In this document: positions 38,695-64,000 of the stretch, piece by piece
Numbering within the stretch: the first letter of the stretch is position 1
Layout: each line of letters begins with the position of its first letter
NCBI GenBank assembly: GCA_039818205.1
Contig: JBCBUK010000005.1
Location: forward strand, 224,001-288,000
From: Verrucomicrobiota bacterium
GTDB taxonomy: Bacteria; Verrucomicrobiota; Verrucomicrobiia; Opitutales; Cerasicoccaceae
Reading direction: 5' to 3'
Length of the DNA: 64,000 bases
Notes under the pieces: model-generated
Told to the model about the DNA's origin: nothing
What the model saw: only the letters and a program-made list of their open reading frames with translations
Database searches by the model: none
Program-made: the position numbers and the translations under genes

Positions 38695-41600
38695 TTACTC
38701 AGAGGTGTCGGCGGGTTTTGCTTTTTCGCTGACGTAATCCAGAACCGCTGCACCAAACGTAAAACCACCGCCGAATGCAACCAGAGCAACACGGGCATTG
38801 CCGGGCAGATCTTCCCAGTTTTTCGAAAGGCACAATGGAATACTGCTGGATGAGGTGTTGCCGAAATTCCGGATATTCTCCCAGACCCGCTCCGGGCGAC
38901 CACTCAGGCGCTTCGCCAAGGCACGACTGATACGTTGATTTGCCTGGTGAGGCACAATCACATCTAAGTCGTCCATCTCAAGTCCACTGGCAGCACACGC
39001 TTGTGTCATCGCATTGGTCATATGGCGGACCGCATCATAAAAGACGCGTTTGCCGCGCATCGCGGTCGAATCAGGGCTATCGGTCAAGGGAACATTCAAG
39101 CTCTCGCCGGACTCCCCAATACCCGAAATAAGCGGCTTGTGCAGACGCAACTCATCACTGAGCTCGGGCTCACCGGAATCGGCCGAACGCGCACTGATCA
39201 GAGTCGCGGTAGCCGCATCGCCAAATAAAAACGCCGTATCGTAATCTTCAAGATCAAGCGTCCGGGAAAGCACTTCAGTAGTCACCAACAACACATTCCC
39301 AGAGCGACCTTCCAAAAAGTCATAAGCGCATTGAAGACCGTATAGATAGCCCGAACATCCCGCGGAAATATCATAACCCGGGCAGCACTGCTCCGGAGCC
39401 AATGCATGTAAGACTCGCATGGCCAGCGAAGGCGTCCCGCGGTCAGGAGTCGTTGTCGAACAAATTACCAGATCGATATCCTCCATGGCCACTGGCGTTT
39501 TCTCGAGCAGTTGCTCGACGGCTTCTACAGCCAAGCTGAGCGGCGTTTGTTCTGGGGAAGCCCAATAGCGGCTCTCGATACCCGTGCGACGGACAATATC
39601 GTCGCTGGTTTTTTCTGGGAAGCGCTTGAGCAACTCTTCGTTGCTAACTTCGACGCTACCATGGGCAATGCCGATAGCGCCCAAACGAACGATTGTGTTC
39701 TCATCCGAACGAGGGCCACTTGCCAAGAGCGGTGCGGCATCGTCTGTCGAAATAATATAAGGCTTCTTCTTTTGATTCTTCGTCGAAGAACGCTCAGTCG
39801 TATTAGCCTCAGCGCATCGAATGCGCATGATTGGGTCGCCCACGCTGATTGAAACGCCTTCGTCGACCGCCAGGGCCTCAACAACACCCTCAAAAGGAGA
39901 GACCATTTCGGCGGCAGCTTTATCTGCCTCTATAATCGCGATGTCCTGGTCTACGCTGACCGTGTCGCCTTCCTTGACCAACCATTCAACAACGGTTACC
40001 GAGTCGTCAGAAGCTCCGACGCCCATCGCGGAAATCGTCTCTATATTTGAGCTTTCCACATCATCGCTTGCCCAGCCCAGCTGTAAATCCATCAGCTCAG
40101 CTGCGGCCTCAATAATGTCGTCGACCGATGGCAAAATCTCCAGCTGGTTGGCCAGGTTGAACGGCACAAGCGCTTCGGGCCGGGTTACCCGTCGAACGCG
40201 GGCAGGCACCGATTCACCTTCAACGACACACGCACAAATTTCGGCGCCCACACCACAAAATCCATTGTCCTCGTGAACGACAACCAAGCGCTTCGTCTTG
40301 CGAACGGAACTGCGAATCGCGTCTTCATCCCAAGGAGTGATCGAGCGCAAGTCAATGACCTCGGCGGACACCCCGAGCGCCTCTAATTGTTGAGCCGCCT
40401 CTTCGCACAGAGGGACCGTATTGGCCCAACCAACCAAGGTGACATCGTCGCCGCTACGGCATTGGTGGGCTTTTCCAATTGGCACCCAATAGTTCGCGAC
40501 GTCTCCGCTCGAAGCCCGCAGCTTGGCGTTAATCAAATTCTTGGGATACAAGATGACCGTCGGACGATTCGAAGCCAGGGCTGCGTTAACCATTCCCGCA
40601 GCATCGCGCGCGGTGGAGGGCATCACGATATCAACCCCGGGTGAATGCGCCAAAACCGACTCTAAGGTCTGCGTGTGAAAGGGCCCAGTACCCCCGCGAT
40701 AACCACCGCAGGAAACCATGATCACCACTGGGCAATTCCATTGCCCGGCTGATCGCCAATACATCGAGGCCAGTTCGTTGTGATAAAGGTTCTGAATCAG
40801 CGGAAGAAAATCAGCAAACTGAATAAACCCGACTGGCTTGCCGCCGGCCAGAGCTTGCCCAATGGTGAGCCCCATGATGCTGGCCTCTGCCAGTGGCGCG
40901 TTGCGAACCCGGTCCGGGAACGCTTCCGATAGGCCTTGGGTCACCCCAAATACATCGCCTTTGGGGTCTTCGATGTCCTCGCCCAGAAGCGTAACCGCCT
41001 CGTCCTTGCTCATCGCCTGATGCAAGGCTTCGCGCATGGCTGCACGCATCGTCACCCCAATACCGTTGGTATCGATTCGACGCCCCTCCTTGGGCTCGGT
41101 CTGGTTTACGTAGTCGGCACTGAGTGGTGCCTTGACCTCCAAGGATAAAACTGGATCAGCAGATTGTCGGGCCTCGTCGGCCGCGGACTTCACCGCCACC
41201 CGGGCACTCTCCTCGATTTCGAGCAACTGATCGTTGTCCACACCGAGATCCAAAAGCTGCTTGCGAAATTCGATCAGTGGATCACGAAACTTAGCATTCT
41301 CGGCCAGAGTATCCGCATTGCGGTAGGCCTGCTGATCATCGGCGTTCGAATGGCTGCCCAAGCGCTCGACCCGCATCACCGCAATCGCTGGACCACGAGT
41401 CGATCGAATCTTGCTGCAGAGGTTGCCAAACTGTTCACGTGAATCGATGACATCGACGCCATCCCAATAATGAATTGGCACACCGAGGAAGCTTTCCGCC
41501 TGCCCATCCGGGAGGGAGAAAAAGGTTTGCCCTCCCGTCGTAGTCGAAAGCGCATAACCATTGTCCTGGATCAAGAACAACACAGGCAAATTCGCTCGAA

Positions 41601-42144
41601 CCGCCTCACCGACGGCCTCATAAAAATCCCCCTGCTGCACGCCGCCATCGCCAATTGCACAATAGACCAGCGGAGCACCAGGATCATCTTTGATGCGAGA
41701 AGCGACGCCCACGGCAGGCAACAGATTGTTGCCCACCGAAACTGGCATACTCATGACATTCAGCGCCCGGTCCGAGTGCATCACATTCATGTGCCGCCCT
41801 GCCGAACAAGAAGCCTCGTTCGCAAACAGAGAATCAAAGAATGATCGAGGCTCGACCCCGCGAGCGAGCAAAAGAGCTCGATCGCGGTAGTGACAACCCA
41901 GCCAATCGTCCGGAGTCAGAAACTCCGCGAGGGTTGCCGTTGCCTCGTGCCCCGCACTTGCAATGTGGAAGTGCCCCTCACCTCGAGCGATGATCTTGCG
42001 TTCCTCGGACTCGATTTCGCGTGAGCGGACAAGACAGCCATACAAATCCAGGTACCGTTCCAGTAGATCAGATCGGCACGAATCCGGGGTGGATTCCGCT
42101 AAACGGGTCATGGGTTCAACCGGTCGGTCCTTGAAGACATCCAT
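38695..42144 (-). CDS. Fusion protein: 2-oxoacid dehydrogenase E1alpha + E1beta + lipoyl domain + FabH (KAS III)
   Basis: ThDP motif GDGGVQQG...QDNGYA. E1beta motifs LLGEDI...GVTQGL, NAPLAEASIMG and IQFADF. Lipoyl motif EADKA (K742). KAS III motifs DISAGCSG (C930), PHQAN (H1066), GNTSSSS (N1096) and AFGGGFTFG. Confidence 0.9.
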   Translation of the reverse strand: MDVFKDRPVEPMTRLAESTPDSCRSDLLERYLDLYGCLVRSREIESEERKIIARGEGHFHIASAGHEATATLAEFLTPDDWLGCHYRDRALLLARGVEPRSFFDSLFANEASCSAGRHMNVMHSDRALNVMSMPVSVGNNLLPAVGVASRIKDDPGAPLVYCAIGDGGVQQGDFYEAVGEAVRANLPVLFLIQDNGYALSTTTGGQTFFSLPDGQAESFLGVPIHYWDGVDVIDSREQFGNLCSKIRSTRGPAIAVMRVERLGSHSNADDQQAYRNADTLAENAKFRDPLIEFRKQLLDLGVDNDQLLEIEESARVAVKSAADEARQSADPVLSLEVKAPLSADYVNQTEPKEGRRIDTNGIGVTMRAAMREALHQAMSKDEAVTLLGEDIEDPKGDVFGVTQGLSEAFPDRVRNAPLAEASIMGLTIGQALAGGKPVGFIQFADFLPLIQNLYHNELASMYWRSAGQWNCPVVIMVSCGGYRGGTGPFHTQTLESVLAHSPGVDIVMPSTARDAAGMVNAALASNRPTVILYPKNLINAKLRASSGDVANYWVPIGKAHQCRSGDDVTLVGWANTVPLCEEAAQQLEALGVSAEVIDLRSITPWDEDAIRSSVRKTKRLVVVHEDNGFCGVGAEICACVVEGESVPARVRRVTRPEALVPFNLANQLEILPSVDDIIEAAAELMDLQLGWASDDVESSNIETISAMGVGASDDSVTVVEWLVKEGDTVSVDQDIAIIEADKAAAEMVSPFEGVVEALAVDEGVSISVGDPIMRIRCAEANTTERSSTKNQKKKPYIISTDDAAPLLASGPRSDENTIVRLGAIGIAHGSVEVSNEELLKRFPEKTSDDIVRRTGIESRYWASPEQTPLSLAVEAVEQLLEKTPVAMEDIDLVICSTTTPDRGTPSLAMRVLHALAPEQCCPGYDISAGCSGYLYGLQCAYDFLEGRSGNVLLVTTEVLSRTLDLEDYDTAFLFGDAATATLISARSADSGEPELSDELRLHKPLISGIGESGESLNVPLTDSPDSTAMRGKRVFYDAVRHMTNAMTQACAASGLEMDDLDVIVPHQANQRISRALAKRLSGRPERVWENIRNFGNTSSSSIPLCLSKNWEDLPGNARVALVAFGGGFTFGAAVLDYVSEKAKPADTSE

Positions 42145-47023: not shown

Positions 47024-47039
47024 TGGCATGGCATGTGCT
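47024..47039 (+). promoter_or_regulatory. Sigma54 (-24/-12) promoter of the importer operon
   Basis: TGGCATGGCATGTGCT matches TGGCACG-N4-TTGCW with exact GG/GC spacing, 41 nt before the SBP start codon. Confidence 0.7.
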
Positions 47040-47043
47040 TTCA

Positions 47044-47071
47044 GTATTATGATTTTCCAAAAACGTAATAC
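47044..47071. promoter_or_regulatory. NikR-type operator 1 (GTATTA-N16-TAATAC)
   Basis: Perfect 6-bp inverted half-sites with a 16-nt spacer, the geometry of the E. coli NikR site GTATGA-N16-TCATAC. It overlaps the predicted sigma54 transcription start. Confidence 0.78.
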
Positions 47072-47080
47072 CGCTTAATC

Positions 47081-48082
47081 ATGAAAATGCATATACTATC
47101 AAATGTATCTCGCCTATTGGCAATCGCTGCCTTGGGTTTTGCCTCCACAACGCTCCACGCAAAAGAACCCCTGAAAATCGCCTATAGCGATTGGCCAGGT
47201 TGGGTTGCCTGGGAAATTGGCATCAAGAAAGGCTGGTTCGAAGAAGCTGGCGTCGATGTCGACTTCCTTTGGTTTGACTACGTTGCATCGATGGATGCTT
47301 ACGTGGCTGGCAAGGTCGACGCGGTATCAATGACCAATGGTGATGCGTTGGTCACTGGCGCCACCGGGAAGCCATCGGTCGGCATTATTCTGAATGACTT
47401 CTCCAACGGCAATGACATGATTGTCGGCGGCCCGGGAGTTGATTCGATCAAGGACTTGAAGGGCAAGAAGGTCGGCGTTGAAGAAGGCTTTGTTTGCCAC
47501 CTGCTTCTGCTCAAAGGGTTATCGGATAACGGTATGTCCGCTGACGATGTGACCATCGTCAACACACCAACCAACGAAACGCCCCAGGTGCTTGCTTCGG
47601 GCGCTGTCGCAGCAATTGGCGCATGGCAGCCGAACTCAGGTGAAGCCTTGAAAGCGACGCCAGGCTCTTCACGCATTTATTCATCGGCTGATAGCCCAGG
47701 TATCATCTATGACTTCCTTTTCGTTTCTCCGGAGTCGTTGGAGACCCGTCGCGATGACTGGATGAAAGTGGTTGGCGTCTGGTATCGCATCGTCGACTAC
47801 TTAAAGGACGAAGACAATATCGACGAAGCGCTCGAGATACTCTCATCACGCGTCAACTTGAAGCCTTCAGAGTATGAGCCGCTGTTTATTGGCACCCACA
47901 TCCTCTCGCTCGATGAAGCGCTTGAGCGCTGGAAAAAAGGCGACGGCCTCGGCAGCGTCTACGGTTCTACTGACTTTGTTGATGACTTCAACGTGAAGTT
48001 TGAGGTCTATGAGGAGCCACTCAATACATCTAAGTATTTAGATCCGAGTCTGACAAAAGAATATGCGAAGTCCGCGAAGTAG
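47081..48082 (+). CDS. NitT/TauT (SsuA/THI5-like) ABC substrate-binding protein; predicted guanidine/amine-type ligand
   Basis: Signal peptide, [33 protein letters not shown] and [13 protein letters not shown]. The ligand is inferred from gene context only. Confidence 0.85.
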
Positions 48083-48109: not shown

Positions 48110-48147
48110 GCTTTGGCACCAAGCCGGATAAGGCTTGGTGCCAAGGC
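48110..48147 (+). other. Intercistronic 16-bp hairpin (mRNA stabiliser or attenuator) after the SBP gene
   Basis: GCTTTGGCACCAAGCC(ggataa)GGCTTGGTGCCAAGGC, with no U tract on the plus strand. Confidence 0.65.
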
Positions 48148-48173
48148 AAAACCACTGCTGCACTACAACTACT

Positions 48174-49571
48174 ATGTCCAAATTCGATCCATGGTTGGCG
48201 ATACGCAAACCACTGTCGCCACAGCGACAAGCACTACTCACGGTCGTTTCATTCCTACTGCCGATCTTTGTTTGGTGCATTGTCAGCTACATACCGTGGC
48301 TCTGGCATCCGGACATGGTTGTTACAGTCTCCGCCGATCGCCATGATGTCACCACCGTCTACTCGGTTGGCGATCGATTACCACGTCACAAAGAAAGCGA
48401 AGACGACTTTGCCTTTGTCGATTTCGTCGAAGATGTTCGCGAGCGTAACGAAGAAATTCAAGCTGCCCGCGATTCTGGAGAGCCGATGGAAAGCTCCCGT
48501 CGCGCGAACAAGAAAGTTCTGCGTCACCTGGCACCGGTTGGCATTGCCGAAGGCTGGCTAACACGGGACCAGGCCACTGATGATACGGCAATCTACACGC
48601 TTTGGGGAGAGATTGCGCGGGGTGAAAAACAACCGTCCAAAGTCCAACTCTCCCAAGAGAATTTGGCAGTCGTCCGGGACAACTGGAGTAAGGTCGGAGC
48701 GATCAGCGAAACCTACGATTCGAAGAAAATCCCGACGGAAATTCTCCTCAATTTAATTCCACAAGGCAAACCATCCAATCCCGTATTTGTACCCGCACCG
48801 CACGAGGTTGTTCAAACGGGCATTTATGATTGGACGCACCAACGCGACCCAGACAAGCCGGCGATGTTCGAGCGCTACGGTCACTCGTTGACCATTGTCT
48901 TTAGCGGCTTCCTGCTTTCCTGCTTATTTGGCGTCCCACTCGGGATCTTAAGCGGAACCTACGACTTTTTTGCCAAAATTGTTGAGCCCTTTACTGATTT
49001 CTTCCGCTACATGCCTGCCCCGGCATTCAGCACAATATTGGTCGCCATTTTATCGGTGTATGACGCGCCGAAAATCGGCCTGGTTTTTCTCGGCACTTAC
49101 TTCCAAATGGTGTTGGTCATTTCCAACACGACGCGAACCTTAGACCGCTCGCTTCTCGAAGCTGCCCAAACCCTGGGCGCCAAGAGCAAAGACATGATGT
49201 TCCGAGTCATCATCCCAGGCATCATGCCAAAGCTCTACAATGACCTTCGCATTTTGCTCGGCTGGGCATGGACTTGGCTCGTGATCGCAGAACTGATCGG
49301 AACCAAGTCAGGCTTGACCGAGTTCATTGAGACGCAGGGCCGTTTTCGGAATTTCGACAGTGTCTACCCAACGATCATCATCATTGGCCTAACCGGCTAC
49401 GTGACCGACCAAATTCTCGCCGCCCTGCGCCCGCTTTTCTTCCCGTGGGATCCGCAGCATTCTAGTCAGAAGCTCAATGTGATCATCCGCTTTTTCAAAT
49501 GGCTCACGAACTCGGAGTGCTACGTAAAGTCCGAGCAAGACACCAAAACACTAACCTCCAACGACCAATAG
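48174..49571 (+). CDS. NitT/TauT ABC permease with a large inserted soluble loop
   Basis: [22 protein letters not shown] motif [10 protein letters not shown] and [14 protein letters not shown]. The ATG at 48174 is preferred. Confidence 0.9.
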
Positions 49572-49581
49572 AAGGCTTCCC

Positions 49582-50478
49582 ATGATTGATGAATTGCAAT
49601 TACCGAGCTATCGGGAACAAAGCCCAGAAGTTGCCAGCCGTTTCAAGTCCATCTATGAGCGACCCGTTAAGCTGGAGGTCAAAGGGTTAGGCCGAACCTT
49701 CAACTCGAACAAGGGTACTGTTCGTGCGCTCCACGATATCAGCTTCAACGTTCACCGCCGCGAATTCATCTCGGTCATTGGGCCATCTGGCTGCGGTAAG
49801 TCGACCTTGATCCGTATTTTGGCAGGCCTAGATTTCCCGACATCAGGCGAGGCACTGCTCGACGGTAAAACAATCTTTGGCCCTGGTCGTGACCGCGGAA
49901 TGGTTTTTCAAGGGTATACGCTTTTTCCTTGGTTAACCGTCAAGAAGAACGTGATGTTCGGTCTCGAAGTGTCTGGCAGGACAGGATCATCTGTAGAAGC
50001 GGAAGCCCGCTCCTGGATTGAGATCGTCGGCTTGGCCGGGTTTGAAAATGCCTATCCAAGCCAACTTTCAGGGGGCATGAAACAACGCGTGGCGATCGCC
50101 CGATCCCTTGCGAATAATCCAAGCATGCTGTTCATGGACGAACCGTTTGGCGCCTTGGATGCCCAAACGCGGTGCCAGATGCAATCTTATCTCCTCCAGA
50201 TTTGGCGCAACGTTGATGTCACGATCATGTTTGTGACGCACGATCTGGATGAGGCGATTTACCTTTCCGACCGCATCCTCGTGCTCAAAGCCAAGCCCGG
50301 GGAGATCAACGAGTTCATCGAAGTTCCAGTTCCCCGCCCACGCTCGGTTGACCAACTCCTTTCGCCAACCTTCCTCGCAACCAAAAAGCGTCTGGAAGAA
50401 CTGATTCACCCAGAGGGAACGGAGATCAAGGAGCTCCCGGTAAAACGGTTCGTATCGGCTGACGAGGAAATTGAATGA
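49582..50478 (+). CDS. NitT/TauT ABC ATP-binding protein
   Basis: [27 protein letters not shown] and FVTHD. Confidence 0.95.
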
Positions 50479-51245
50479 CCGGCGCCAAGGCATCAAGTTC
50501 ATGGGAACACCTGACCTGGCCGGAGATTGGCCAGCGGCTGGAAAGCGGCCAAGACGCTGCGATCCTTCCCGTGGGTGCAACCGAACAACATGGCCCCCAC
50601 TTGGGCGTCGGCATGGACACGGCCTTGGCTGAACGACTGGCGCTCGCCGTATCGGCGTCGACTGGCGTTCCCTGTCTGCCAGCGCTCCCCTATGGTTGTT
50701 CAATAGGGCATTCTCACCGCTGGCCAGGCACCTTGGCGCTCAACCCGAAAACGCTCATTGATGTCATCGCCGACATTGGCCGTTGGTTCTACAAGAGTGG
50801 AGGCCGTCGCCTCTTTCTTGTCAACGGGCACGTAGGCAACCGTGCTCCCTTGCGCTGTGCGCTCGAAGTACTCCGAGCGGAATGTGAAGACTTCAAGATC
50901 GCGATTTTTACCACCGGCGACATCAGCGACCGCGTCGCGGCAGCGTTTTCTCAAGACGCAGCAGACTGGCATGCAAATGCGGCCGAAACGGCCCTTATGA
51001 TGCATCTTAGCCCAGAATCCGTTCGATTCGATCGGGTCCAGGACGCCGATGATCCGGATCGCACCAACGATTGCGTTTTTGCCCACCCGGTAAACCGAAC
51101 AAGCCTTAACGGTGTGACCGGCAAGCCATCGACGGCGACTTCCGCAATGGGCGAACAGCTGTTTGCGATCATGGTCGATGACCTCAGTGAACACATCATG
51201 AAGGGCCTGCAGGAGGCGTCGCCCCTCGAATTCCCCTACAACTAA
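50475..51245 (+). CDS. Creatininase-fold amidohydrolase of unknown substrate
   Basis: [13 protein letters not shown]...DT, VNGHVGN and [12 protein letters not shown] overlap with the ATPase gene. Confidence 0.88.
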
Positions 51246-51262
51246 GCCACAAGGAATTTACG

Positions 51263-52681
51263 ATGAACTTGACCGAGTATACCGCACTGCCCTTTCAGAA
51301 ATCTCAGGGAAACGCCTATGGCACACTGCCGGGTGACGAAGAAATCAACGCCGTTCGCAACACCTTGGCTGAGGCAGGAGTAAAATACGTAACCGGTGCC
51401 TATGTCGACATTCATGGCGTCCCCAAAGGTAAAGTCGTTCCGCTGTCGCATTTTGAGAGCTTTGCCAAAGGATCGGAGCTCTACACGGGCTACGCGCTCG
51501 ATGGATTGGGCCAGCTTCCAAATGACGATGAAATCTGCTCGATTCCAGATCTGGGCAACATCGTTCAGCTTCCTTGGCAGCCGGAGATGGCCTGGATGCC
51601 GGCCGACAATGGATTCAAGGGGGAGCCCTACGAAGTTAACACTCGTGTCATTCTCCAGAAGGTTCTCAAGAAAGCAGAGTCGATGGGCTTCGGTTTCAAC
51701 CTTGGTATCGAATGCGAGTTATTTGTCCTGCGCAAGCTTGCCGATGGCACTATTGAAATTCCAAATCCTGAGGACAAGCAGGTAAAGAGCTGCTACGACC
51801 TCAACGGGTTCATGGCCCGCTTTGACTGGCTGGACAAAATGGCAACCACCATCGATGCCCTCGGGTGGGACCTCTATTCCTTCGACCACGAGGACGCGAA
51901 TTCTCAATTCGAATTCGATTTCAAGTATGCTGATGCCCTGACCATGTGTGATCGGTTCATCTTCTTTCGCTTGATGGCTAAACAGTATGCCCAAGAAGAA
52001 GGCTTAGTTGCTTCATTTATGCCCAAACCCTTTGCCGACAAAACCGGCAGCGGTGCCCACTTCAATATGTCGCTGTTTGACCTGGAGAGCGGGTCCAATC
52101 TTTTCGCCGATAGCAACGACACTCGCGAACTCGGACTCAGTAAACTCGGCTATCAATTCTGCGCGGGAATCCTCAAGCACGGACCAGCGCTGTGTGCCGC
52201 CTTTGCGCCAACCGTGAACAGCTACAAGCGCCTCGTCCGCCGCGGCCTAATGGCCTACTACTCATGGGCGCCGGTATTCAATTCCTACGGCAGCAACAAC
52301 CGAACCAACTCCTTACGCATACCGATGGACGGAGGCCGGGTCGAGTCGCGCAACGCCGACGCATCCTGCAACCCCTATTTGGCGGCCACGCTAGCCTTGG
52401 CAGCTGGACTTCAAGGGATCGAAGAAGACCTCGATCCCGGAGAGCCCCAGGAGGACAACCTCTATGCGCTTAGCAAGGAGCAGCTGCATTCGCGCGGGAT
52501 CGATGAATTGCCTCGGAGTTTGCTGGAGGCAGTCGAAGCTTTTGCCGAAGACCCGTTCGTCGCCGAGGTCCTTGGAGATGGCCTGCGAAATGAATTTATT
52601 ACCTACAAATCTGAGGAATGGCGCCAGTTTCATCAACGGGTTCACGCATGGGAAATTGATGAATATTTGCTCAAATTTTGA
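51263..52681 (+). CDS. glnT: GlnT/GmaS-clade glutamine-synthetase-like gamma-glutamyl ligase
   Basis: [30 protein letters not shown] (GmaS-like rather than HHEVA), FMPKPF, NSYKRL, NRTNSLR and [15 protein letters not shown]. Confidence 0.85.
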
Positions 52682-52688: not shown

Positions 52689-52716
52689 GTATTAACAATT
52701 TGCCAAAAATTAATAT
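52689..52716. promoter_or_regulatory. NikR-type operator 2 (GTATTA-N16-TAATAT)
   Basis: Same half-sites and 16-nt spacer as operator 1, with a similar TTT..CCAAAAA spacer. It ends 36 nt upstream of the NikR-like gene. Confidence 0.75.
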
Positions 52717-52752
52717 TGAATTGATCCCTGGAAACGCTAATCCATCAACCTT

Positions 52753-53202
52753 ATGACGGACCCCATTGAGAGAATCAGCATATCGATGCCGAAGCGCCTA
52801 ATCGAACGATTGGACGATATGAATGCGCGCCGGGGTTTCGATAGCCGCTCTCAGGCAATCGCTTCGATGGTCGAACAGCAGCTGGTTGAATACGATGAAA
52901 GCCTCGGGGAAGAGGTCATGACTGGAACCATCACCATCGTCTATGACCAGTCAAAGAACAATTTGAAGAAACGCTTAGCGGAAATCGAATACGAGAACAT
53001 TGCCGAGGTGATTAGCTCGCTGCACGTGCTGCTCGAGAATGAGCACACCATGGAGGTCATTCTGGTCCAAGGTCCGGGCAAAAAACTACGCCACATCGCA
53101 GACCAACTAGTTTCCTGCAAAGGGGTAAAGAATGGAACCATGAGCCTCCACAGTGCCCTTATTCCACCGCTTCATTCGAAATCAATTAGCAAAAAGAAAT
53201 AA
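52753..53202 (+). CDS. nikR: NikR-like ribbon-helix-helix/ACT regulator lacking the canonical nickel site
   Basis: [19 protein letters not shown]...SRSQAI. ACT-like domain GTITIVYD...[21 protein letters not shown]...KGVKNG. Confidence 0.85.
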
Positions 53203-53930
53203 TGTCTGAAACTCCTCCCCTCTTATATAACCGCCGAATCGGTGGCGGCCAAATGTGGTCAAAGGTCATCGGCCGAGGCAAATGCCTCAAGATAACCGAC
53301 CTCGAAGGCGGTGCCAACGTCGGTATGATGCTCTACAATGCCAACGAGAAAACAGAGCGCTACAACATGCCCGATACCCTCAAAGGGCAAAAGATCTTTT
53401 ACCTAAGGGCCCCCTACTGCCTGCACTCCGACATGGGCCGGCTCTTTGCCTCGATTGTCGACGATACGGTTGGCTGGCACGACACCGTCTGTGGCTCAAC
53501 CAATGCTACCATGGTCGAATCCAAGTATGGTACGAACGACTATCAAGATGCGCGGAACGATTGGTACCGCAATGGACGTGACTGCTTCCTGATCGAACTT
53601 GGTAAATGGGGAATGGGCGAGCGCGACCTGATCCCGAATATCAACTGGTTTAGTAAAGTCAGCCCTGACGAATCGGGCAAACTCACCTACCAGAGCGGCA
53701 ACTCACCAGCTGGCGCAAGCGTGACCCTGCGCTTCGAGTTGGACACCCTGGTTGTGCTTAATACCTGCCAGCACCCGCTGGACTCAAACCCGACCTACGA
53801 CCCCAAACCGGTTCAACTCGATGTCCTTCCGGCGCCAAGTGTGAGCGAGGAAGACCCCTCTCGGTCGATTCGGCCGGAGAATGGACGCGCGTTCCAAAAC
53901 ACTGAAGAATACAACCGCCTACGCTTCTAA
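53202..53930 (+). CDS. cgdA: Urea-carboxylase-associated protein 1 (DUF1989), carboxyguanidine deiminase subunit A
   Basis: [34 protein letters not shown] and NTCQHPLD. Confidence 0.88.
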
Positions 53931-53933
53931 CTT

Positions 53934-54578
53934 ATGAGCAACTTTACCGAAAGCAGTCTTATTGAATCCGACGCCGTTTATAGTAAAGTCGTACGGGCCG
54001 GTGACTTTTGGATCCACCAGATCAATGCCGGCCAAACGCTGCGCATCGTCGACCTCGAAGGAAACCAAGCCGCAGACACTCTCTTTTACAACGCCGATGA
54101 TCCGGACGACCGCTACAGTGCGTGCGATACGATTGCCGCACAACAAGCCCTCTACCTAACTTCGGGTACGCGGCTCATGTCCACCCGTGGAACTGAACTG
54201 CTGAAGATCGTCGCCGATACCTGTGGTCGGCACGACACCTTAGGCGGTGCCTGTTCGCGCGAAAGCAACACGATGCGCTATGCGATGGACAAAGAGCCCA
54301 TGCACGCGTGTCGCGATAGCTTTTTGCGCGGGGTGCAAAGTTGGAGCCCTCACCTCGATAAGCGAGATGTCACCTGCAACATCAACTTTTTCATGAATGT
54401 TCCCGTGTCTCCCGATGGCCAACTTGATTTTGCCGATGGCGTTTCAGCCCCAGGCCGGTACGTAGAGATGCAAGCGACCAGTAATGTGATCTGCTTGATA
54501 TCCAACTGTCCGCAACTCAACAACCCGTGCAACGCCTACAATCCCACACCAGTTCAGGTCTTGATCTGGGACTCCTGA
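53934..54578 (+). CDS. cgdB: Urea-carboxylase-associated protein 2 (DUF1989), carboxyguanidine deiminase subunit B
   Basis: [41 protein letters not shown] and [17 protein letters not shown]. Confidence 0.9.
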
Positions 54579-54591: not shown

Positions 54592-57500
54592 ATGTTCAAA
54601 ACGATCCTGATTGCCAATCGAGGAGAGATTGCTTTGCGCATCTTGCGCACCGCCCAGCGGATGAACATTCGCACGGTAGCAATTTACTCCGAAGCAGACT
54701 CGCAAGCACCACACGTTTACCAGGCCGATGAAGCCATTTGCGTTGGCCCACCATCCGTCGCAGAGAGCTACCTCAACCAAGAGAAGATTCTGCAAGCAGC
54801 GTTGCAGTGCGGCGCCGAAGCGATCCATCCTGGCTATGGCCTGCTAAGCGAGTCCGCCGAGTTTGCGCAAGCTTGTGCTAACCGTGGTATTGTCTTTATC
54901 GGTCCGCGAGTCGAGCACCTCCAACAGTTCGGGCTAAAGCACGCAGCTCGCGAACTGGCTTTGGCTTCTGCCGTACCTTTGGTACCAGGGACCGACCTTC
55001 TCGGTTCGCTCCAGACGGCAAAGCAAGAGGCGGAGAAGATTGGATTTCCGGTGATGATGAAAAGCACTGCCGGTGGTGGTGGCATCGGCATGGAGGTTTG
55101 CCGCTCGATGGACGACCTCGATGCATCCTTCGATCGCGTCCAGCGCCTCGGCCAATCCAACTTTGGGCAAGGTGGAATTTTTCTTGAGAAATACGTTGAG
55201 CGAGCCCGCCACCTTGAAGTGCAAATCTTTGGAGATGGCAAAGGCAATGCCGTGTCTTTAGGAGTCCGGGACTGCTCGAGTCAGCGGCGAAACCAAAAAG
55301 TTATCGAGGAAACGCCGGCATGCGGGGTTCCCGAAAGCGTGATCAATGGACTGCAGGCGGCCGCGATTCGGCTGACCGAAAGTGTCGGGTATCTCTCAGC
55401 GGGCACTGTTGAGTATATCTACGACGTCAACGCCAGCACGTACTACTTCCTCGAAGTCAACACGCGCCTGCAAGTCGAACATGGCGTGACGGAAGAAGTG
55501 GTCGGAGTCGACCTCGTCGAGTGGATGATTCGGCAAGCAGCTGACGATCTGCCCAACCTGGACTTACCCAGTGAGCGTCCAGGTGGACACAGCATCCAGG
55601 CCCGAATTTATGCGGAGGATCCGGACAAGAATTTCCAGCCCTCAAGCGGCCTATTAAATCATGTGTCGTTCCCCGAGAGCATTCGATGCGACCATTGGAT
55701 CTCTTCTGGCACGGAGGTCACCAGCCACTATGATCCACTACTGGCGAAGCTGATCGTGCACGCCCCGACTCGCGAAGAGGCAATTGCAGAGCTCCATGCG
55801 GCGCTTGAGCAAACCGCCATCTACGGAATTGAGACGAACCGCGAATATTTGAGTGCCCTGGTCCAGAGCGATCTCCTTCGGGAGAATAAGATGACCACGC
55901 AATCGCTCAAAGCATTTCAGTATGAAACCCTGACCATCGATACGCTTAAGTCCGGTGTTCAAACGACTGTGCAGGACTATCCGGGACGCGTCGGCTACTG
56001 GGAGGTCGGGGTCCCGCCTTCGGGCCCGATGGACAGCCTTTCTTTTCGCTTGGGCAACCGGCTTTTGGGTAACGATGAATCAGCGGCCGGCCTCGAAACA
56101 ACACTGGAAGGCCCGACTCTACGGTTCAACGCCCCAACCACAATCGTGCTAACGGGCGCGGAGAGCGATGCGAAGCTTAATGGGCAAGCGCTGAGCTTCT
56201 GGGAGCCGATTGAAATCGCGTCCGACGATGTTCTGGAAATGGGACAGGTCACCGGTATCGGTATGCGTACTTATTTGTGTATCGCTGGTGGGTTAAACGT
56301 CGCGGACTACCTGGGCAGCAAATCAACCTTTACGCTTGGGAAGTTTGGCGGGCACGGCGGCCGCCCACTCCAAACCGGTGACGTTCTCCACGTCAATCGC
56401 TCAAGCAATGCGATCGCGGCCAAAGCCTTACCCGCCGAGTATCGCCCCAAGATATCAAACCAGTGGACTATCAACGTACTCTATGGTCCACACGGGGCAC
56501 CCGATTTCTTTACCGATGATGATATCGAGACGTTCTTCGCCACCGAGTGGGAGGTGCATTTTAACTCGGCCCGGACTGGGGTTCGCCTGATCGGACCCAA
56601 GCCGCAATGGGCCCGTCCCGACGGCGGCGAGGCCGGACTTCATCCATCCAATATTCACGACAATGCCTACGCGATCGGAGCAATCGATTTTACGGGAGAC
56701 ATGCCAGTCATTCTCGGCCCAGACGGGCCAAGTCTCGGTGGCTTTGTTTGCCCAGCGACTGTTGCCTTTGCCGACCTCTGGAAGATCGGACAGCTTCGGC
56801 CAGGTGATCGAATCCGATTCGAATGCATTGACCAAAGTAGCGCTGCGCTACTGGTAAAAAACCAAGAGAACCTCGTCAACGCGCTTCGCAACGAGGAAAC
56901 TCCAGCAGTGCCGTGTATTACTCCAAAGGCAACGGATCTCATCCTCACAGAGACGGGCGACGGCAACGAGCGAATGGTCATTCGGCAATCCGGAGATGAC
57001 AATGTATTGATCGAATTCGGACCTCCACTCCTGGACCTCCGACTGCGATTTATCGTCCACGTATTCTATGAGCAGCTACTCAAGAATCGACTAGAAGGAG
57101 TCATCGACCTCACACCCGGAATTCGTTCTCTCCAAATTCATTTCGATCGGGCCGCGTTGGAACTGGATTGTGTTCTGGAGTGGCTGCTCGCCCATCACGC
57201 GGACCTCAAATCTCTAGAGGAACAGAAAGTATCCTCGCGCATCGTCCACTTACCGCTTTCGTGGGACGACCCTTCGACGCAGCTAGCTGTTTCTCGCTAC
57301 ATGCAAACGGTTCGTCCCGATGCGCCTTGGTGCCCGAATAACCTGGAGTTTATCCGCCGAATCAATGGACTTGAATCGGTCGATCAGGTGCGGGAAATCG
57401 TCTTCAACGCCAGCTATGTTGTACTCGGCTTAGGGGACGTCTACCTTGGCGCTCCAGTCGCAACTCCTTTGGACCCGCGTCATCGGTTGATCACGACAAA

Positions 57501-58182
57501 GTATAACCCAGCCCGAACCTGGACTCCGGAGAATGCCGTGGGAATTGGCGGAGCGTATATGTGTGTCTACGGTATGGAAGGCCCGGGCGGGTATCAGTTT
57601 GTCGGTCGCACCCTTCAAATGTGGAACCGCTATGGAAGCGTCGATGCATTTCATGACGACAAGCCCTGGTTACTTCGGTTTTTTGACCAGATTCGGTTTT
57701 TCCCAGTTTCGGCCGATGAACTCACGCAGATCCGAAAAGACTTTCCCCAGGGCAGGTATCCGATAAAAATTGAGCAGAGCTCCTTTGACCTCCACGAATA
57801 CGAGGCGATGCTCGCCAAGAACGATGCCGATATCCAGGCGTTCAGGAGTCAACAGCGTGAGGCATTCGATGCGGAACGTGGGCGCTGGAGCGACACGGAC
57901 CAGCGTTCGGACCTGGACGAGGTAGCCGTGGATTCGACAAGCGATATCGAGCTACCTGAAGGCTCTCAGGCTATTGAGAGCTCAGTATCGGGTACGGTAT
58001 ACAAAGTGCTAGTTAACGAGGGTGACCACGTTCAAAAGGGCCAAACGACCCTGGTGCTCGAGTCGATGAAAATGGAAATTTCGGTATGCAGCCCTTATGC
58101 GGGCGAAGTGATGCATGTCGCCGTTGCAAATGGTGGCTTCGTCAAACCTGGCGATCGGCTTTTGGCGGTTCGCTCAGACTAA
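54592..58182 (+). CDS. uca: Urea-carboxylase-family enzyme, predicted guanidine carboxylase (Asp type)
   Basis: Biotin carboxylase [10 protein letters not shown]...[10 protein letters not shown]. Carboxyltransferase [22 protein letters not shown] (D699). Biotinyl motif ESMKME. Directly follows cgdAB. Confidence 0.92.
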
Positions 58183-58241
58183 TCACTGCGCATAAGAAAT
58201 TTGCATTGAGAAATATGTGATTCGTTTTTCAATTGAGAACA

Positions 58242-58934
58242 ATGTCTTCGTCAAAATCGAATACTAAGAAAAATCGAAGTGAAGATATCTTTAATATCCT
58301 GCAAAGTCGGATCCTCTCCTGGGAGTATCAACCTGGGCATCGATTGAAAGAGGATGAGCTTTGCCGAGAGTTCGATGTCAGCCGAATTCCCATCCGGGAA
58401 GCTCTTAGCCGCCTCAGTCAAATCCATTTGGTGGAGCGCAAGGCCCACGTCGGCTGTTCGGTAAAGCGTTGGACACTGGAGGAAATTAATGAACTCTATG
58501 AGTTTCGTGTCGCATTGGAGACCTATGTTGTTGAGGCGCTTGCCCAGAAAGAGGATCCCATTGCCGAACTAAAAGAACTCAAAAAGGAATGGCAGGGCTA
58601 CCTAACCGAAACGGATGACACCAGTTTTGCCCAAAAGAATTGGTCTACCCGGGACGAACACTTTCATGAGACGCTGGCCGCTGCACTTGGAAACCAACAG
58701 ATTCTAAATTCGCTGCAAGACGTGAACTCTCGGCTTCGGTTTTTGCGCGTCCAGGACATCACGACGCAAGAGGTTTTAACGAAAAGCAGTAAGCAGCATA
58801 TCTCCATTATCAACGCGATTCGACGCAGCGACGACGAGTCCGCGAAAAAGTTGATGCGAACCAATATTCAGATGGGTAAGGGCAACGTAAAGAGCGCTCT
58901 ACAGCAAGTTCTCATGCGCTCCTATGAAGATTAG
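58242..58934 (+). CDS. GntR-family (FCD) transcriptional regulator
   Basis: YQPGHRLKEDELCREFDVSRIPIREAL, ELYEFRVALE, DEHFHETL and QHISII. Confidence 0.9.
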   Translation: MSSSKSNTKKNRSEDIFNILQSRILSWEYQPGHRLKEDELCREFDVSRIPIREALSRLSQIHLVERKAHVGCSVKRWTLEEINELYEFRVALETYVVEALAQKEDPIAELKELKKEWQGYLTETDDTSFAQKNWSTRDEHFHETLAAALGNQQILNSLQDVNSRLRFLRVQDITTQEVLTKSSKQHISIINAIRRSDDESAKKLMRTNIQMGKGNVKSALQQVLMRSYED

Positions 58935-58944: not shown

Positions 58945-60723
58945 CTAGCTGCCTGCTAGGCTGGACATATACCGCCGCCACGACTGTAGATGGGTAATCT
59001 CAGTGGAACCTTCCACAGCGCAAGCCTCGGCGATAAAGCCCATGCACTCGACATCGCCCTTAAGGAAAACACGACCGAGACCGAGCGGAGCGCCGATGCC
59101 CTCCAAGAAACTCCCAAGCGTTTCACGCGGCAGCTGCCAAACCTCAACAGCGATGCTACTCCCGTGCATGGAATCTCTAACCAAAGCGGGCCGTCGGGGC
59201 TCGCCTTCGAGGGCAAACAACCGGTACATCGGCAAGGTCTCCGTCTTACGAACAAACCGACCGTTCCGCTCTAGCAGCTGAAAATTCAGTGGCATATCTT
59301 TCATGTGCGCACCACAAACCACGATCGGAACCAGACTATCCAAATTCTTTGATTCAGCAATGACTTCCGGTGGGCTTAACTTACTCGTACCCATGGTCAA
59401 ACCTGTCTTTGCGTGCAGCTCACCCGCAATCTCCAACAGGTCAAGATCCCTACCCGAACCGGCAAATAGTGTTACACCATGCGGAAGGTTGTCCTTACGA
59501 AACGCTACTGGTGTTGCAACTGCAGCAAGGTCAAAAAGGTTCATGAAATTCGTGTAGTAACCCAACTCAGAATTCAGCGCGAGAGGCTCGTTGAGAACTT
59601 GCTCAGTCGTGTAGACGGTGCCGCATGTCGGAGTCATGATTCCATCAACTTGTTCTAGAACCTCGTCACCCAATCGCTTCAAGTCTTTTAGTTTATACTC
59701 AGCCCGAAAATAGTCGACCGCTGACGCCCGGTTACCCTGCTCAATGATCTGACGAGTGACCGGGTGGAGAATGTCTGGCCGTTCGGCGAGAATACTTTCT
59801 AACACAGAGTAACGTTCAGCCAACCAAGGCCCCTCATACAGCAAGCGAGCGGCATCTTTGAAGGGCTCAAAGTCAATCTCAACGACGTCATAACCAAGTT
59901 CGCGAACTAAATCGATTGCCTTGTCAAAAACGATCTTGGTCTGTTCATCACCGAAAAACTCCAACTGCTCCGATTTCGGTATCCCAATTGATTGTCGGCG
60001 ACTACCAGCCTGCAGCGAAATGCTCACCGCATAAGGATCTTCGGCATCGTAGCTTGCAGCAACTTCCAAGACCGCTTGAGCATCAGCATTTGAAAGCGCA
60101 AATATTGAAACGCAATCCAAACTGCGACAGGCGGGGACTAATCCCGTCGTGCTCAAAAGACCTCGACTTGGTTTTAGTCCAACAATGTTATTCAAAGAAG
60201 CCGGGATTCTTCCCGATCCCGCCGTATCAGTCCCAAGTGCAAACGAAACCAAGCCTTTGGACACCGCGACCGCAGAACCAGAACTGGATCCGCCCGGAAT
60301 GTATCGTGGATCAAACGGATTCGATGGAATGCCGTAGGGAGAGCGAGTTCCCACCAGGCCCGTCGCGAACTGATCAAGATTCGTTTTACCGATCGGAATC
60401 GCTCCGGCATCAATTAGTTGTTGAACAACGTAGGCGGAATTGGTCGGAGTGTATGCATAGTCGGGACACGCGGCAGTTGTCGGAACGCCTGCCAGATCTA
60501 GGTTATCCTTAACTGCAAACGGTATACCATAGAGCGGGTGTGTTTCCGGTGACTTGTCTTTCAGCTTTTCAACATAGACGGCTATTTCCTCACGTGAGAG
60601 GACGTAGATCCAGATCGCGGGATCCTCAACTCGAATGCGGTCCAAGACACAGTCAAGCACCGCTTGCGGATGGATCTCCCGATTGGCGTATTGCTTAATC
60701 AAGTTATCAATTGAAATATTCAT
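58945..60723 (-). CDS. atzF: Allophanate hydrolase
   Basis: PLYGIPFAVKDNLD, GKTNLDQFATGLVGTRSPYG, GGSSSGS, GTDTAGSGRIP and C-domain VVCGAHM. The ATG at 60723 is preferred. Confidence 0.93.
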   Translation of the reverse strand: MNISIDNLIKQYANREIHPQAVLDCVLDRIRVEDPAIWIYVLSREEIAVYVEKLKDKSPETHPLYGIPFAVKDNLDLAGVPTTAACPDYAYTPTNSAYVVQQLIDAGAIPIGKTNLDQFATGLVGTRSPYGIPSNPFDPRYIPGGSSSGSAVAVSKGLVSFALGTDTAGSGRIPASLNNIVGLKPSRGLLSTTGLVPACRSLDCVSIFALSNADAQAVLEVAASYDAEDPYAVSISLQAGSRRQSIGIPKSEQLEFFGDEQTKIVFDKAIDLVRELGYDVVEIDFEPFKDAARLLYEGPWLAERYSVLESILAERPDILHPVTRQIIEQGNRASAVDYFRAEYKLKDLKRLGDEVLEQVDGIMTPTCGTVYTTEQVLNEPLALNSELGYYTNFMNLFDLAAVATPVAFRKDNLPHGVTLFAGSGRDLDLLEIAGELHAKTGLTMGTSKLSPPEVIAESKNLDSLVPIVVCGAHMKDMPLNFQLLERNGRFVRKTETLPMYRLFALEGEPRRPALVRDSMHGSSIAVEVWQLPRETLGSFLEGIGAPLGLGRVFLKGDVECMGFIAEACAVEGSTEITHLQSWRRYMSSLAGS

Positions 60724-60772
60724 TGCTGAAATCGGATTCACAAATACTTGGGAGATCTGGCTGGGAACGCAA

Positions 60773-63700
60773 TCACTCCGGCTTGATACCAACTAACTGC
60801 TGGCCTGTTCGCACCGGCGAACCCTCCTCAGTCAGAATCTGCGCAACTTTACCGCTAACGGTCGCCTGCACCGAAATCTCCATCTTCATTGCCTCGACAA
60901 TCAGGATAGTTTGCCCGGCTTCGACAACTTCATCTACGCCCACGACAATCTTCCAAACGTTGCCATTGATATGGCTGCAAACTGCTTCTACGCCATCAGG
61001 AAGGTCGGCTTCTTCGGGCGGCTCGGGCTCAAATGAGTCTGTCACGGCATTCTGGCCAGCCGCTTCCCACCGTTCCCGCTCCTCTTCGAATGCTTTCTGT
61101 TGTCGCGCCTTAAACGCGGCAATGGACTCAGCGTTTTCATCCAGAAACTCGTTGTACTCCTTCAGGCTAAAGTCCTGCTCCTCGATTTTAACCTCAAACG
61201 TGCCAGCGTGGAAGTCACGTCGCATCTCGACGAGTTCTTCCTCTTCGACCGGATAGTATCGCACCTGGTCGAAAAACCTAAGAAGCCAGGGTTTTCCTTC
61301 CTCGAAGGGTCCCGTCTTGAGATAGCGATTCCAAATGGGAACTGTTTGACCAACGAGCTGGTATCCACCGGGGCTATCCATCCCATAGATGCACATATAG
61401 ACGCCGCCGATCCCCACCGTACCTTCGGCCGTCCAAGTGCGAGCAGGATTATACTTGGTCGTTAGCAAACGGTGTCGCGGATCAACCGGCACCGCCGCCG
61501 GCGCGCCCAGGTAAACGTCACCAAGCCCCATGACCATGTAGCTCGTACTGAAAACGATATCTTTCACCTCATCGACTGATTCAAGACCGTTGATGCGACG
61601 CATAAATTCGATATTGGACGGGCACCACGGAGCATCCTTACGGACAGATTTCTCATACTTGCGAACTGCAGCCTGAGTCATCTCATTGTTCCAGCTCATC
61701 GGCAGATGAAGGACACGGGTCTTGATCACCATTTCCTCAATTGGTGGAAGCTCTTTCTCCGCCGCAACCAGCAGGTCCAGAAGCGCCTGCAGCCGAATCA
61801 CCCGTGAGTCGTAGTGGAGCTGCAATGACCGAACGCCTGGTGTGATATCGATCAGGCCCGGGATCGGATTCTTGTCGATCCAATCCATCAAGGCGTAGAT
61901 GCGGAAGCGGAAATTCAAGTCGAGAACGATGGGACCGTATTCGATTAGGAGATACTTGTCTCCGCACGGCCGGTAGTTGACCTCCACTGGCAACTCTCCC
62001 TTCGGCAGAGTCACCGCCACGCAGGGCTCACGCTCCAACCCATCAGTCAGCTCATTAACGACCGCCTGATCGAGTTGTTGAACCCCGGCGTCCTGCAGCT
62101 CCTCCAGCGTATTGGCCGCTACCTGGGTGACGCAGGTGAAGCGAATGGAATCACCCGGACGTAATTGACCAATCATCCAAAGGTCTGCTTGCACGATCGT
62201 TACTGGGCAAACGAACCCACCCAGGCTTGGTCCATCGGGTCCAAGTATAATCGGCATGTCCCCGGTAAAATTGATCGCGCCAATCGCATAAGGATTGTCG
62301 TGAATATTCGACGGGTGGAGACCTGCTTCGCCACCATCTTTACGCGCCCACTGCGGCGTACTTGGGGCAATCAACCGGATGCCGGTCCGGGCAGAATTAT
62401 AGTGGACCTCGAACGTTGATGCCAAAAATGTATCGATATCCTCTTCAGTAAAGAAATCGGGCGCGCCATGGGGACCGTAGGTTACCCGGATCTCCCACTC
62501 ATGATTATACTGGGGAATGAAGTCCCCCGGCAATTGGCGTGGGACGGTCTCTCCGACCTGATCGGGTTCCAGGAGGTGCAACACATCCCCTGGCAAGAGA
62601 GTCCGTCCACCATGGCCACCAAAGTTACCCATTGAGAAGGTCGCCTGACTGCCGAGATAAAAGGGAACATCAAAGCCACCGGCAACAGCCAGATAGGCGC
62701 GGCAACCCACAGAGGTAATCTTACCGAGCTTTAACACCGAGCCTGCCGAAACTGTCAACGTTCGCCACATCTGGACGGGCAACCCATCCAAGTCTGCCTC
62801 GATCGGAGCACCCGTGATAGCGATGCTCGCGTCTTGGTTGAACTTGAGCGTCGGCCCAATCAAAGTGATTTCGAGAGCCGCGATTCCTTCCTCATTCTGC
62901 ACCAGGCGATTGGCCAACCGAAAAGAAAGGTTATCCATTGGCCCCGATGGCGGAACCCCGATATCCCAGTACCCGATTCGGCCAGGGTAATCTTGAATGC
63001 TCGTTTGCGTTCCCGGGGTAATGACATCGACCCCGGTAGTCGGATACGAGAAGTCTTTAAGAAACGCGGTTGTGATCGTGCCTTGTTTGAAATCAGGCGT
63101 CGCCACGATTCGACTCAAGTATTCTAGATTCGTTTCGATCCCGTGCAATGCGGTGGCATCCAACGCTTCACTCAAAGAGGCGATGGCCGCTTCCCGCGAG
63201 TCCGCCTTCACGATGAGCTTAGCGAGGAGTGGATCGTAGTTTGGTGTTACCTCGGTTCCCGTGGCGATCCAGGTGTCGCAACGCACGCCTTCTGGAAACA
63301 CAACCTCTGAGAGCACGCCCGAAGACGGCTGGTAGTTCTTACGGGGATCTTCAGCGTAGATCCGAACTTGAATCGAGTGGCCAGCGGTTGTGACAGAATC
63401 AACCCCTGCGGTCGGATCCTCCCCCCCAGCCAAGGTCAACATCCATTCGACGAGATCGACGCCCGTAACTTCTTCGGTCACCCCATGCTCAACCTGCAAG
63501 CGCGTATTCACCTCGAGGAAGTAGAACTCCTCGGTATCCACATTGACCAAAAACTCGACGGTTCCCGCCGATCGATACGCAATGGATGACGCGAGTCGCT
63601 GCGCGGCCTCGGTAAGGCCCGCCCTTAAACTGTCGGAAATGTTCGGTGCAGGTGTTTCTTCAATCACCTTCTGGTTTCGGCGCTGTGCTGAACAATCTCG

Positions 63701-64000
63701 CTCGCCCAACGTAACGACGCCCCCCTGCCCGTTTCCAAAGATCTGAACTTCAATATGGCGAGCCCGGCCGACGAACTTCTCCAAGTAAATACCCGCCTGC
63801 CCAAAGTTAGTCATGCTTAGGTGCTCCACCTGCTCATAAGCCGCTCGGAGACTGCCGGGCTCCTCGCAAATGCGCATCCCGATGCCGCCCCCACCAGCGA
63901 CGCTCTTAAGCATGACCGGATAGCCAATCTCGTCCGCCCGCTCCAAAGCTTGGTCCGCCGACTCCAGCAAACCCGTTCCAGGCAACATCGGAACATTGGC
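60773..64000 (-). CDS. uca: 5'-truncated second urea carboxylase (Asn type, predicted urea-preferring)
   Basis: The frame is open to the window edge. [39 protein letters not shown] and EAMKME. Directly upstream of atzF. Confidence 0.92.
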   Translation of the reverse strand, partial: ANVPMLPGTGLLESADQALERADEIGYPVMLKSVAGGGGIGMRICEEPGSLRAAYEQVEHLSMTNFGQAGIYLEKFVGRARHIEVQIFGNGQGGVVTLGERDCSAQRRNQKVIEETPAPNISDSLRAGLTEAAQRLASSIAYRSAGTVEFLVNVDTEEFYFLEVNTRLQVEHGVTEEVTGVDLVEWMLTLAGGEDPTAGVDSVTTAGHSIQVRIYAEDPRKNYQPSSGVLSEVVFPEGVRCDTWIATGTEVTPNYDPLLAKLIVKADSREAAIASLSEALDATALHGIETNLEYLSRIVATPDFKQGTITTAFLKDFSYPTTGVDVITPGTQTSIQDYPGRIGYWDIGVPPSGPMDNLSFRLANRLVQNEEGIAALEITLIGPTLKFNQDASIAITGAPIEADLDGLPVQMWRTLTVSAGSVLKLGKITSVGCRAYLAVAGGFDVPFYLGSQATFSMGNFGGHGGRTLLPGDVLHLLEPDQVGETVPRQLPGDFIPQYNHEWEIRVTYGPHGAPDFFTEEDIDTFLASTFEVHYNSARTGIRLIAPSTPQWARKDGGEAGLHPSNIHDNPYAIGAINFTGDMPIILGPDGPSLGGFVCPVTIVQADLWMIGQLRPGDSIRFTCVTQVAANTLEELQDAGVQQLDQAVVNELTDGLEREPCVAVTLPKGELPVEVNYRPCGDKYLLIEYGPIVLDLNFRFRIYALMDWIDKNPIPGLIDITPGVRSLQLHYDSRVIRLQALLDLLVAAEKELPPIEEMVIKTRVLHLPMSWNNEMTQAAVRKYEKSVRKDAPWCPSNIEFMRRINGLESVDEVKDIVFSTSYMVMGLGDVYLGAPAAVPVDPRHRLLTTKYNPARTWTAEGTVGIGGVYMCIYGMDSPGGYQLVGQTVPIWNRYLKTGPFEEGKPWLLRFFDQVRYYPVEEEELVEMRRDFHAGTFEVKIEEQDFSLKEYNEFLDENAESIAAFKARQQKAFEEERERWEAAGQNAVTDSFEPEPPEEADLPDGVEAVCSHINGNVWKIVVGVDEVVEAGQTILIVEAMKMEISVQATVSGKVAQILTEEGSPVRTGQQLVGIKPE

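Follow-up and report, generated by a model that had tools for sequence, protein, structure and literature searches.

The canonical NikR regulators of E. coli (1q5v, 2hzv), P. horikoshii (2bj1) and H. pylori (2ca9, 6mrj) have the RHH plus ACT-like fold in common, bind nickel through His76, His87, His89 and Cys95 in the E. coli numbering (PMC7055735), and control nickel uptake or nickel enzymes. As for guanidine, a 2025 review names riboswitches as the sole guanidine receptors known, transporters and enzymes aside, and guanidine-binding transcription factors as yet to be found (PMC12186494). In the enterobacterial layout outlined in the same review, the guanidine-I riboswitch heads the operon and guanidine-II precedes the carboxylase. 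The name CgdAB was taken from a further report (PMC10927577). For Synechocystis gdmH, dual control by NtcA and guanidine-I is described in another study (PMC12704784).

Judged from its sequence and surroundings, the NikR-fold regulator described here is a strong candidate for a guanidine-responsive activator of gene expression. No description of its subfamily was found in the mainly open-access papers searched.

The guanidine locus and its NikR-fold regulator

The window, meaning the whole stretch of 64,000 nucleotides that was analysed, carries a forward-strand importer consisting of an NMT1/SsuA-like ABC substrate-binding protein (47081..48082, below the TIGR03427 cut-off, with no close solved structure found), an ABC permease (48135..49571, given as the longest ORF, with the true start perhaps some codons further on) and an ABC ATPase (49582..50478), all assigned by profiles. 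Compared with the usual SsuC/TauC type, this permease is extended ahead of its Pfam domain by a long inserted stretch, roughly residues 60-210. A creatininase-family amidohydrolase (50475..51245; PF02633 and PDB matches, below the creatininase and MftE cut-offs) and a GmaS-like type III glutamine-synthetase-like (GS-III) ligase (51263..52681; above the TIGR03105 cut-off) follow, the best PDB match of the latter being the glutamate--methylamine ligase 9qur. Downstream of the regulator lie, also on the forward strand, cgdA for a carboxyguanidine deiminase subunit (UAAP1, 53202..53930, above the TIGR03425 cut-off) and cgdB (UAAP2, 53934..54578, above the TIGR03424 cut-off), the pair at 53202..54578 being named CgdAB here.

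The carboxylase that comes next (54592..58182, forward) has Asp699 at the position of K. lactis Asn1330, where Asp marks the guanidine type and Asn the urea type according to the review cited above (PMC12186494), and was assigned by profile and by this rule. It converges with a second carboxylase on the reverse strand (60773..64000, 5' end beyond the window), assigned to the urea type by profile and its Asn signature residue, with a urtABCDE-like operon upstream of it beyond the window. Between the two lie a GntR/FCD regulator (58233..58934, forward; profile and Pfam) and a single allophanate hydrolase on the converging urea operon (58945..60792, reverse; above the TIGR02713 cut-off). An Asp-type carboxylase after cgdAB and an Asn-type one after a urtA-type operon thus indicate separate guanidine and urea routes in this genome, with the allophanate hydrolase presumably common to both; cgdAB, Asp-type carboxylase and allophanate hydrolase, which characterize a guanidine carboxylase operon, are all present. 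The GntR/FCD gene was dismissed as a part of the system, being conserved in none of the 80 loci compared below.

The regulator itself (52753..53202, forward) is a protein of 149 aa with Pfam RHH_1 and NikR_C domains, and its RHH plus ACT-like architecture was confirmed by an AlphaFold model (mean pLDDT 82) and by fold searches, in which NikR structures were the best matches. It passed the NF003381 NikR profile (117.6 against a cut-off of 105) and scored under the cut-offs of NF002169, NF002815, NF001884 and TIGR02793. Its identity to 2bj1 is 38%, and superposition on 2y3y gave a VIA Z of 15.8 with an rmsd of 1.1 Å over 83 residues. The first-pass annotation had held that of the four nickel ligands only the H87 equivalent remains, and the C-terminal domain, which aligns with 1q5v free of gaps at an offset of 4, bears this out: H76 corresponds to Y80, H87 to H91, H89 to L93 and C95 to T99, and the square-planar His3Cys site is absent. 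Equally borne out were an intact DNA-binding strand (R7-I-S-I-S, the R-x-S-x-S strand common to canonical NikR) and an overlap of 1 nt between the regulator's TAA (53200-53202) and the ATG of cgdA (53202).

Relatives were compared as the best 120 of 1,594 homologues and as the best 80 of 557 GTDB loci, some of which are truncated. Cys at the Cys95 equivalent (position 99) occurred in 0/120 homologues and 0/80 loci. All three histidines were kept in 64 of the 120 homologues and 19 of the 80 loci, and the Y-H-L-T pattern of the window regulator was found in 24 homologues. The H87 equivalent is kept in 79/80 loci, while the H76 position drifts (R, H, Y, C), as does the H89 position (H, Q, L). Y64, E85, Q106 and P138 are each present in 80/80 loci, H141 in 73/80 and H98 in 52/80, E101 is common, and the ACT-like domain and the C-terminal PP(L/I/V)H tail are strongly conserved. 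Loss of Cys95 together with gain of the PP-x-H tail is therefore what all members of the subfamily share, with histidines that erode variably. The earlier claim of ligand loss therefore stands for the window regulator, in which three ligands are gone, but only the loss of Cys95 extends to the whole subfamily. Further departures from canonical NikR are H62, found in 100% of canonical representatives and not conserved here, the change of E30 to Q, and the loss of R33. E85 and Q106 were weakened as unique signatures, as each turns up in one canonical NikR of solved structure, E85 in that of P. horikoshii and Q106 in that of H. pylori.

A quick tree was built from the 150 best representatives at 50% clustering, the window regulator and its paralogue, that is 63 His3Cys rows, 74 non-Cys rows, 1 other and 14 truncated rows, the last of which were dropped. 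A branch with SH-aLRT 90 (not starred) set apart 71 non-Cys rows and no canonical one, all 63 His3Cys rows fell within a group of 65 (support 99), and three non-Cys rows stood on the canonical side. A sub-lineage with three histidines and Tyr at the Cys95 position (L215, L217, L218, L220, L221, L222; P0142, P0209) sits at the same guanidine operons, and two representatives showing this pattern branch beside canonical NikR; it is possibly an evolutionary intermediate.

The subfamily is widespread and auto-annotated as NikR. Genes for cgdA, cgdB, the carboxylase or atzF were found in 73/80 subfamily loci, the other seven having importer or GS-III genes, and every carboxylase with a legible signature residue, 62 out of 62, had Asp there. 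Among the 80 loci, with the truncated ones counted, cgdA occurs in 69, GS-III in 36 and creatininase in 33. In locus L082, a porin-like gene, apparently duplicated, lies upstream of urtA.

Operators, promoter and nickel context

The two matching operators of the first-pass annotation were recovered by motif and matrix. Operator 1 (47044..47071) reads GTATTA-N16-TAATAC with 0 mismatches and ends 9 nt before the ATG of the binding protein, and operator 2 (52689..52716) has 1 mismatch and ends 36 nt before the regulator ATG; the latter presumably serves autoregulation and the control of cgdAB and the guanidine carboxylase. The motif GTAWTA-N16-TAWTAC has these 2 sites in the window against a chance expectation of 0.14, with two sites in 0/100 shuffles. 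When the 4.85 Mb host genome was searched with a matrix from relatives, they ranked as the top two with 33.8 and 22.4 bits, the next match scoring 20.1. A third near-match (C11:135413) and the next matrix matches lie near unrelated genes, and a global regulon in the host was accordingly rejected. The 28-bp palindrome has the 6-16-6 geometry of the canonical NikR site GTATGA-N16-TCATAC. A near-identical motif also precedes a canonical His3Cys NikR in genome G452 (L226), which makes the operator a NikR-family motif rather than one unique to the subfamily.

Across the relatives, the consensus GTAWTAC-N14-GTAWTAC was found in 69/80 loci, and several of the 11 misses are truncated. Upstream regions, defined as those before the binding protein, the regulator or cgdA, had 77 operators in 62 kb, compared with 2 in the other 1.26 Mb. 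An exact whole-genome scan of 50 of the 80 genomes, picked mostly for long loci, returned 46 sites, of which 42 were at the locus, one was before a detached importer-GS-III module and three were unrelated; the reversed motif gave 5 sites in the same scan, so that away from these genes the operator is no commoner than chance. With 43 of 46 sites at guanidine-module genes, the regulon is confined to the importer and the cgdAB-guanidine carboxylase genes. Since the subfamily member is the sole NikR_C protein in 48 of these 50 genomes, the operator would most simply be read by that protein, and reading in trans by a canonical NikR was rejected for most genomes.

A predicted sigma-54-type -24/-12 motif, TGGCA-N7-TGC (47024..47038, forward), precedes operator 1, which, counted from the predicted start, runs from about -6 to +22, a placement that points to repression. 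Among importer-side operators, 36 of 49 have such a motif 20-34 nt ahead of them, whereas none of the 35 regulator-side ones does; the background is 0.66%. When the two promoter regions were scanned for sigma-70 promoters, the results were at chance level. The host has rpoN, and its best NtrC-like match falls below the cut-off.

In an alternative reading, the regulator would keep the polarity of NikR and answer to general nitrogen status, with glutamine, 2-oxoglutarate, ammonium or a partner protein on the C-terminal tail as co-repressor. The same host genome does encode a second NikR-like protein without nickel ligands divergent from a urtA-type transporter and formamidase, and both targets are nitrogen-scavenging operons. 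The regulon is, however, strictly local, and nitrogen status is probably read already through sigma-54, so that this reading is quite improbable. The second protein (L085:19245-19697, in G000:C15 at a contig end) has R/T/H/V at the four ligand positions and is divergent from a urtA-type ABC operon and the formamidase gene fmdA, with sigma-54-like motifs in the spacer. A homologue search with it returned itself only and no close homologue, and it forms a long branch in the quick tree; it is possibly an amide- or urea-sensing branch.

In many cases the gap between the operator and the start codon of the regulator itself is 2-6 nt, as would suit an autorepressor that caps expression independently of any ligand, and co-repression, the ancestral polarity according to a NikR study (PMC7055735), would suit guanidine as a co-repressor closing down the importer once levels become toxic. 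Both variants are very unlikely, as the ACT-like domain and tail are strongly conserved and the operator also heads degradation genes and replaces a riboswitch that is described in the review as gene-activating (PMC12186494). The operator stands directly before cgdA in L044, L113, L115 and L116. In ten loci (L014, L016, L024, L029, L037, L042, L046, L047, L051, L078) the regulator-side operator lies 2-3 nt before the start, which suggests leaderless autoregulated transcripts.

The first-pass annotation had also remarked on the absence of urease and nickel transporters. The host genome, 99.97% complete, extends this beyond the window, with no urease, arginase-family enzyme (guanidinase included), NiFe hydrogenase or HypA found, and no member of the three nickel transporter families searched, NicO, CbiM and HupE/UreJ. 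NiSOD is present, and its contig has no top operator match. No nickel uptake or enzyme regulon was seen among the 46 genome-wide sites described above. Canonical nickel sensing by the regulator is unlikely, in agreement with the earlier view of a protein that has lost nickel ligands and has its own operators.

The retained His triad of some members and the common H98, H141 and E101 make a changed metal site possible, and the regulator could respond to nickel or another ion through a rebuilt site rich in His, so as to keep the carboxylase route, which needs no nickel, repressed while metal is abundant. The near-invariant H87 equivalent, the resemblance of the operator to canonical NikR sites and the passed NF003381 cut-off are compatible with this. 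Against it stand the nickel-poor gene content of the host, the missing high-scoring operator on the NiSOD contig, urease in only 25 of 50 subfamily genomes, the freely drifting H76 and H89 positions, and genome G152, in which a His3Cys NikR beside a CbiM-like gene coexists with a subfamily member at cgdAB. Metal response in this form is accordingly quite unlikely. With the NikR fold and operator geometry kept and both the defining nickel site and the nickel regulon missing, the protein ought to be kept apart from the nickel-responsive NikR class.

Exchange with the guanidine-I riboswitch

No Rfam match was obtained in the window, where guanidine classes III and IV were checked, and the host genome gave neither guanidine-I (150/160 candidates scored) nor guanidine-II (94/509 candidates scored). 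A sample blind to NikR was drawn from 351 genomes of the class of G038, of which 27 matched cgdA; after G038 itself and two matches below the cut-off were dropped, 24 cgdA loci were left. Guanidine-I was found in 17 of the 19 loci without regulator and in none of the five with regulator or operator (Fisher p=5e-4, or 1.7e-3 without L113, both inflated by kinship). L113 is one of the five, with ~300 nt of upstream sequence only and the regulator on another contig; of the two other loci without regulator, one is truncated and one lacks guanidine-I. In two of the 17, the riboswitch faces a divergent importer.

The exchange extends to orthologous genes. L120 and L124 have the same importer-creatininase-GS-III module under guanidine-I and no regulator, with identities to the window of 55-70% for binding protein, ATPase, hydrolase and ligase and 51-53% for the permease, and their guanidine-I-led binding protein is a 60% identical orthologue of that in the window. 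The regulator replaces the guanidine-I riboswitch on such genes. Compared with guanidine-I (RF00442) at the head of ABC-cgdAB-gc-atzF operons, the operator takes the same position before importer and cgdA and has the same target genes, though a protein on a DNA operator at initiation, with a putative ligand, stands in for an RNA aptamer. A sigma-54 motif also lies at 12 of the 17 riboswitch-led operons, so the layer that the regulator replaces is that of the substrate rather than that of nitrogen. The guanidine-I operons resemble the regulator-led ones further in that guanidine-II can precede the carboxylase. The two-layer logic, a global nitrogen signal and a guanidine-specific switch, is that of Synechocystis gdmH (PMC12704784), which differs in pathway (Ni-dependent GdmH) and regulators.

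In the phylum of the host, 27 of 300 other genomes have cgdA, at least two of them already among the genomes of the 80 loci; a NikR-type match was found in 22/27, within 7 kb in 21/27, and guanidine-I in 0/27. Five of the 27 cgdA loci have neither regulator nor any Rfam match, which counts against the reading as a guanidine-released repressor. These loci (L227-L231) have two cgdB-like genes each, and their leader may hide another control element.

The mutual exclusivity with guanidine riboswitches that the first-pass annotation had proposed survived only in part. The 0/5 against 17/19 distribution supports it for guanidine-I, but guanidine-II was found in 13/51 genomes and in 11 of these between cgdB and carboxylase inside regulator-led operons (9 above cut-off), which rules out strict exclusivity with all guanidine riboswitches. 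These operons match the enterobacterial layout, with the operator standing where guanidine-I does. Guanidine-I occurs in 7/50 regulator-bearing genomes (<=61 candidates scored per genome), exactly those with cgdAB outside the operator-led unit, and in six of them directly before cgdA; in four loci a guanidine-I-led cgdAB unit adjoins an operator-led importer unit.

Split loci bear on what the effector is. If the regulator answered to a substrate or product of the importer-creatininase-GS-III module, such as an amine or gamma-glutamyl amide, or else a larger precursor of guanidine, rather than to guanidine itself, it would be expected to stay with the importer while cgdAB passes to guanidine-I, as it does in L059, L060, L072 and L077; the likeness of GS-III to glutamate--methylamine ligase fits as well, and L088 and L094 additionally have a different riboswitch-led binding protein, 27-29% identical to that of the window. 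This reading is nevertheless unlikely, as GS-III and creatininase are much rarer in the 80 loci than cgdA (36 and 33 against 69, truncated loci included), in L120 and L124 it is guanidine-I that leads the same module, and operators can stand directly before cgdA. The creatininase-like hydrolase and GmaS-like ligase occur as a pair under guanidine-I or the regulator in many genomes (e.g. L111, L112, L120, L124), which points to a side route, so far undescribed, that would handle a substituted guanidine; the literature search returned no primary paper on the pair.

A proposed inducer-type switch

On balance, the regulator is rather likely to be a repressor that lets go of its DNA when guanidine, or one of its close derivatives, is present. 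It would then be a NikR-derived tetrameric repressor that has departed from nickel sensing and become the substrate-specific switch of the guanidine-assimilation operon. Under nitrogen limitation the sigma-54 promoter would be active, the ligand-free tetramer over the start site would block transcription, and binding of guanidine or a close derivative (carboxyguanidine, methylguanidine) to the ACT-like domain would release the DNA. Such a polarity would be opposite to that of Ni-NikR, and induction would need the allosteric polarity to be reversed. The guanidine-released repressor has further points against it: guanidine-II already supplies guanidine sensing inside 11 regulator-led operons, guanidine-I and operator heading neighbouring units in four loci would fit two signals, and the three histidines are kept in a part of the subfamily.

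ACT domains bind organic ligands, and an organic effector may be bound by the ACT-like domain here. ACT modules of the AHAS small subunit, RelA, Lrp/AsnC and TM1266 have the same beta-alpha-beta-beta-alpha-beta fold (Z 9-13.5) at 7-17% identity to the regulator, a shared fold that shows neither function nor ligand. One candidate site is the edge of the ACT-like domain facing the DNA-binding domain, with E85, Q106, M56 and the PP-x-H tail. By strand and hairpin register, E85 and Q106 would be close to M56 and the tail, at that end of the sheet which is remote from the former nickel site. The counterpart of M56 in H. pylori NikR is Lys64, which is described as part of an interdomain allosteric hub (PMC9860126).

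A broader claim is evenly balanced, namely that the subfamily represents the first transcription factor to sense guanidine, with the scaffold of a metalloregulator turned into an organic-ligand, inducer-type repressor that is interchangeable with guanidine-I and, in the phylum of the host, has the leading part in regulating guanidine assimilation. If true, it would correct a broad misannotation, explain guanidine carboxylase operons without a leading riboswitch, provide a case of a metal sensor that has come to sense an organic ligand, and yield a guanidine biosensor made of protein; the paralogue next to the urea/formamide operon would then be a further non-metal branch. The question is directly testable, since the protein is named, its 28-bp operator is defined, and the relatives include cultured hosts such as Pelagicoccus and Novimethylophilus strains.

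Elsewhere in the window, an ORF of 1149 aa on the reverse strand (38695-42144) looks by eye like a fusion of 2-oxoacid dehydrogenase E1 alpha/beta, a lipoyl domain and a FabH-like ketosynthase.
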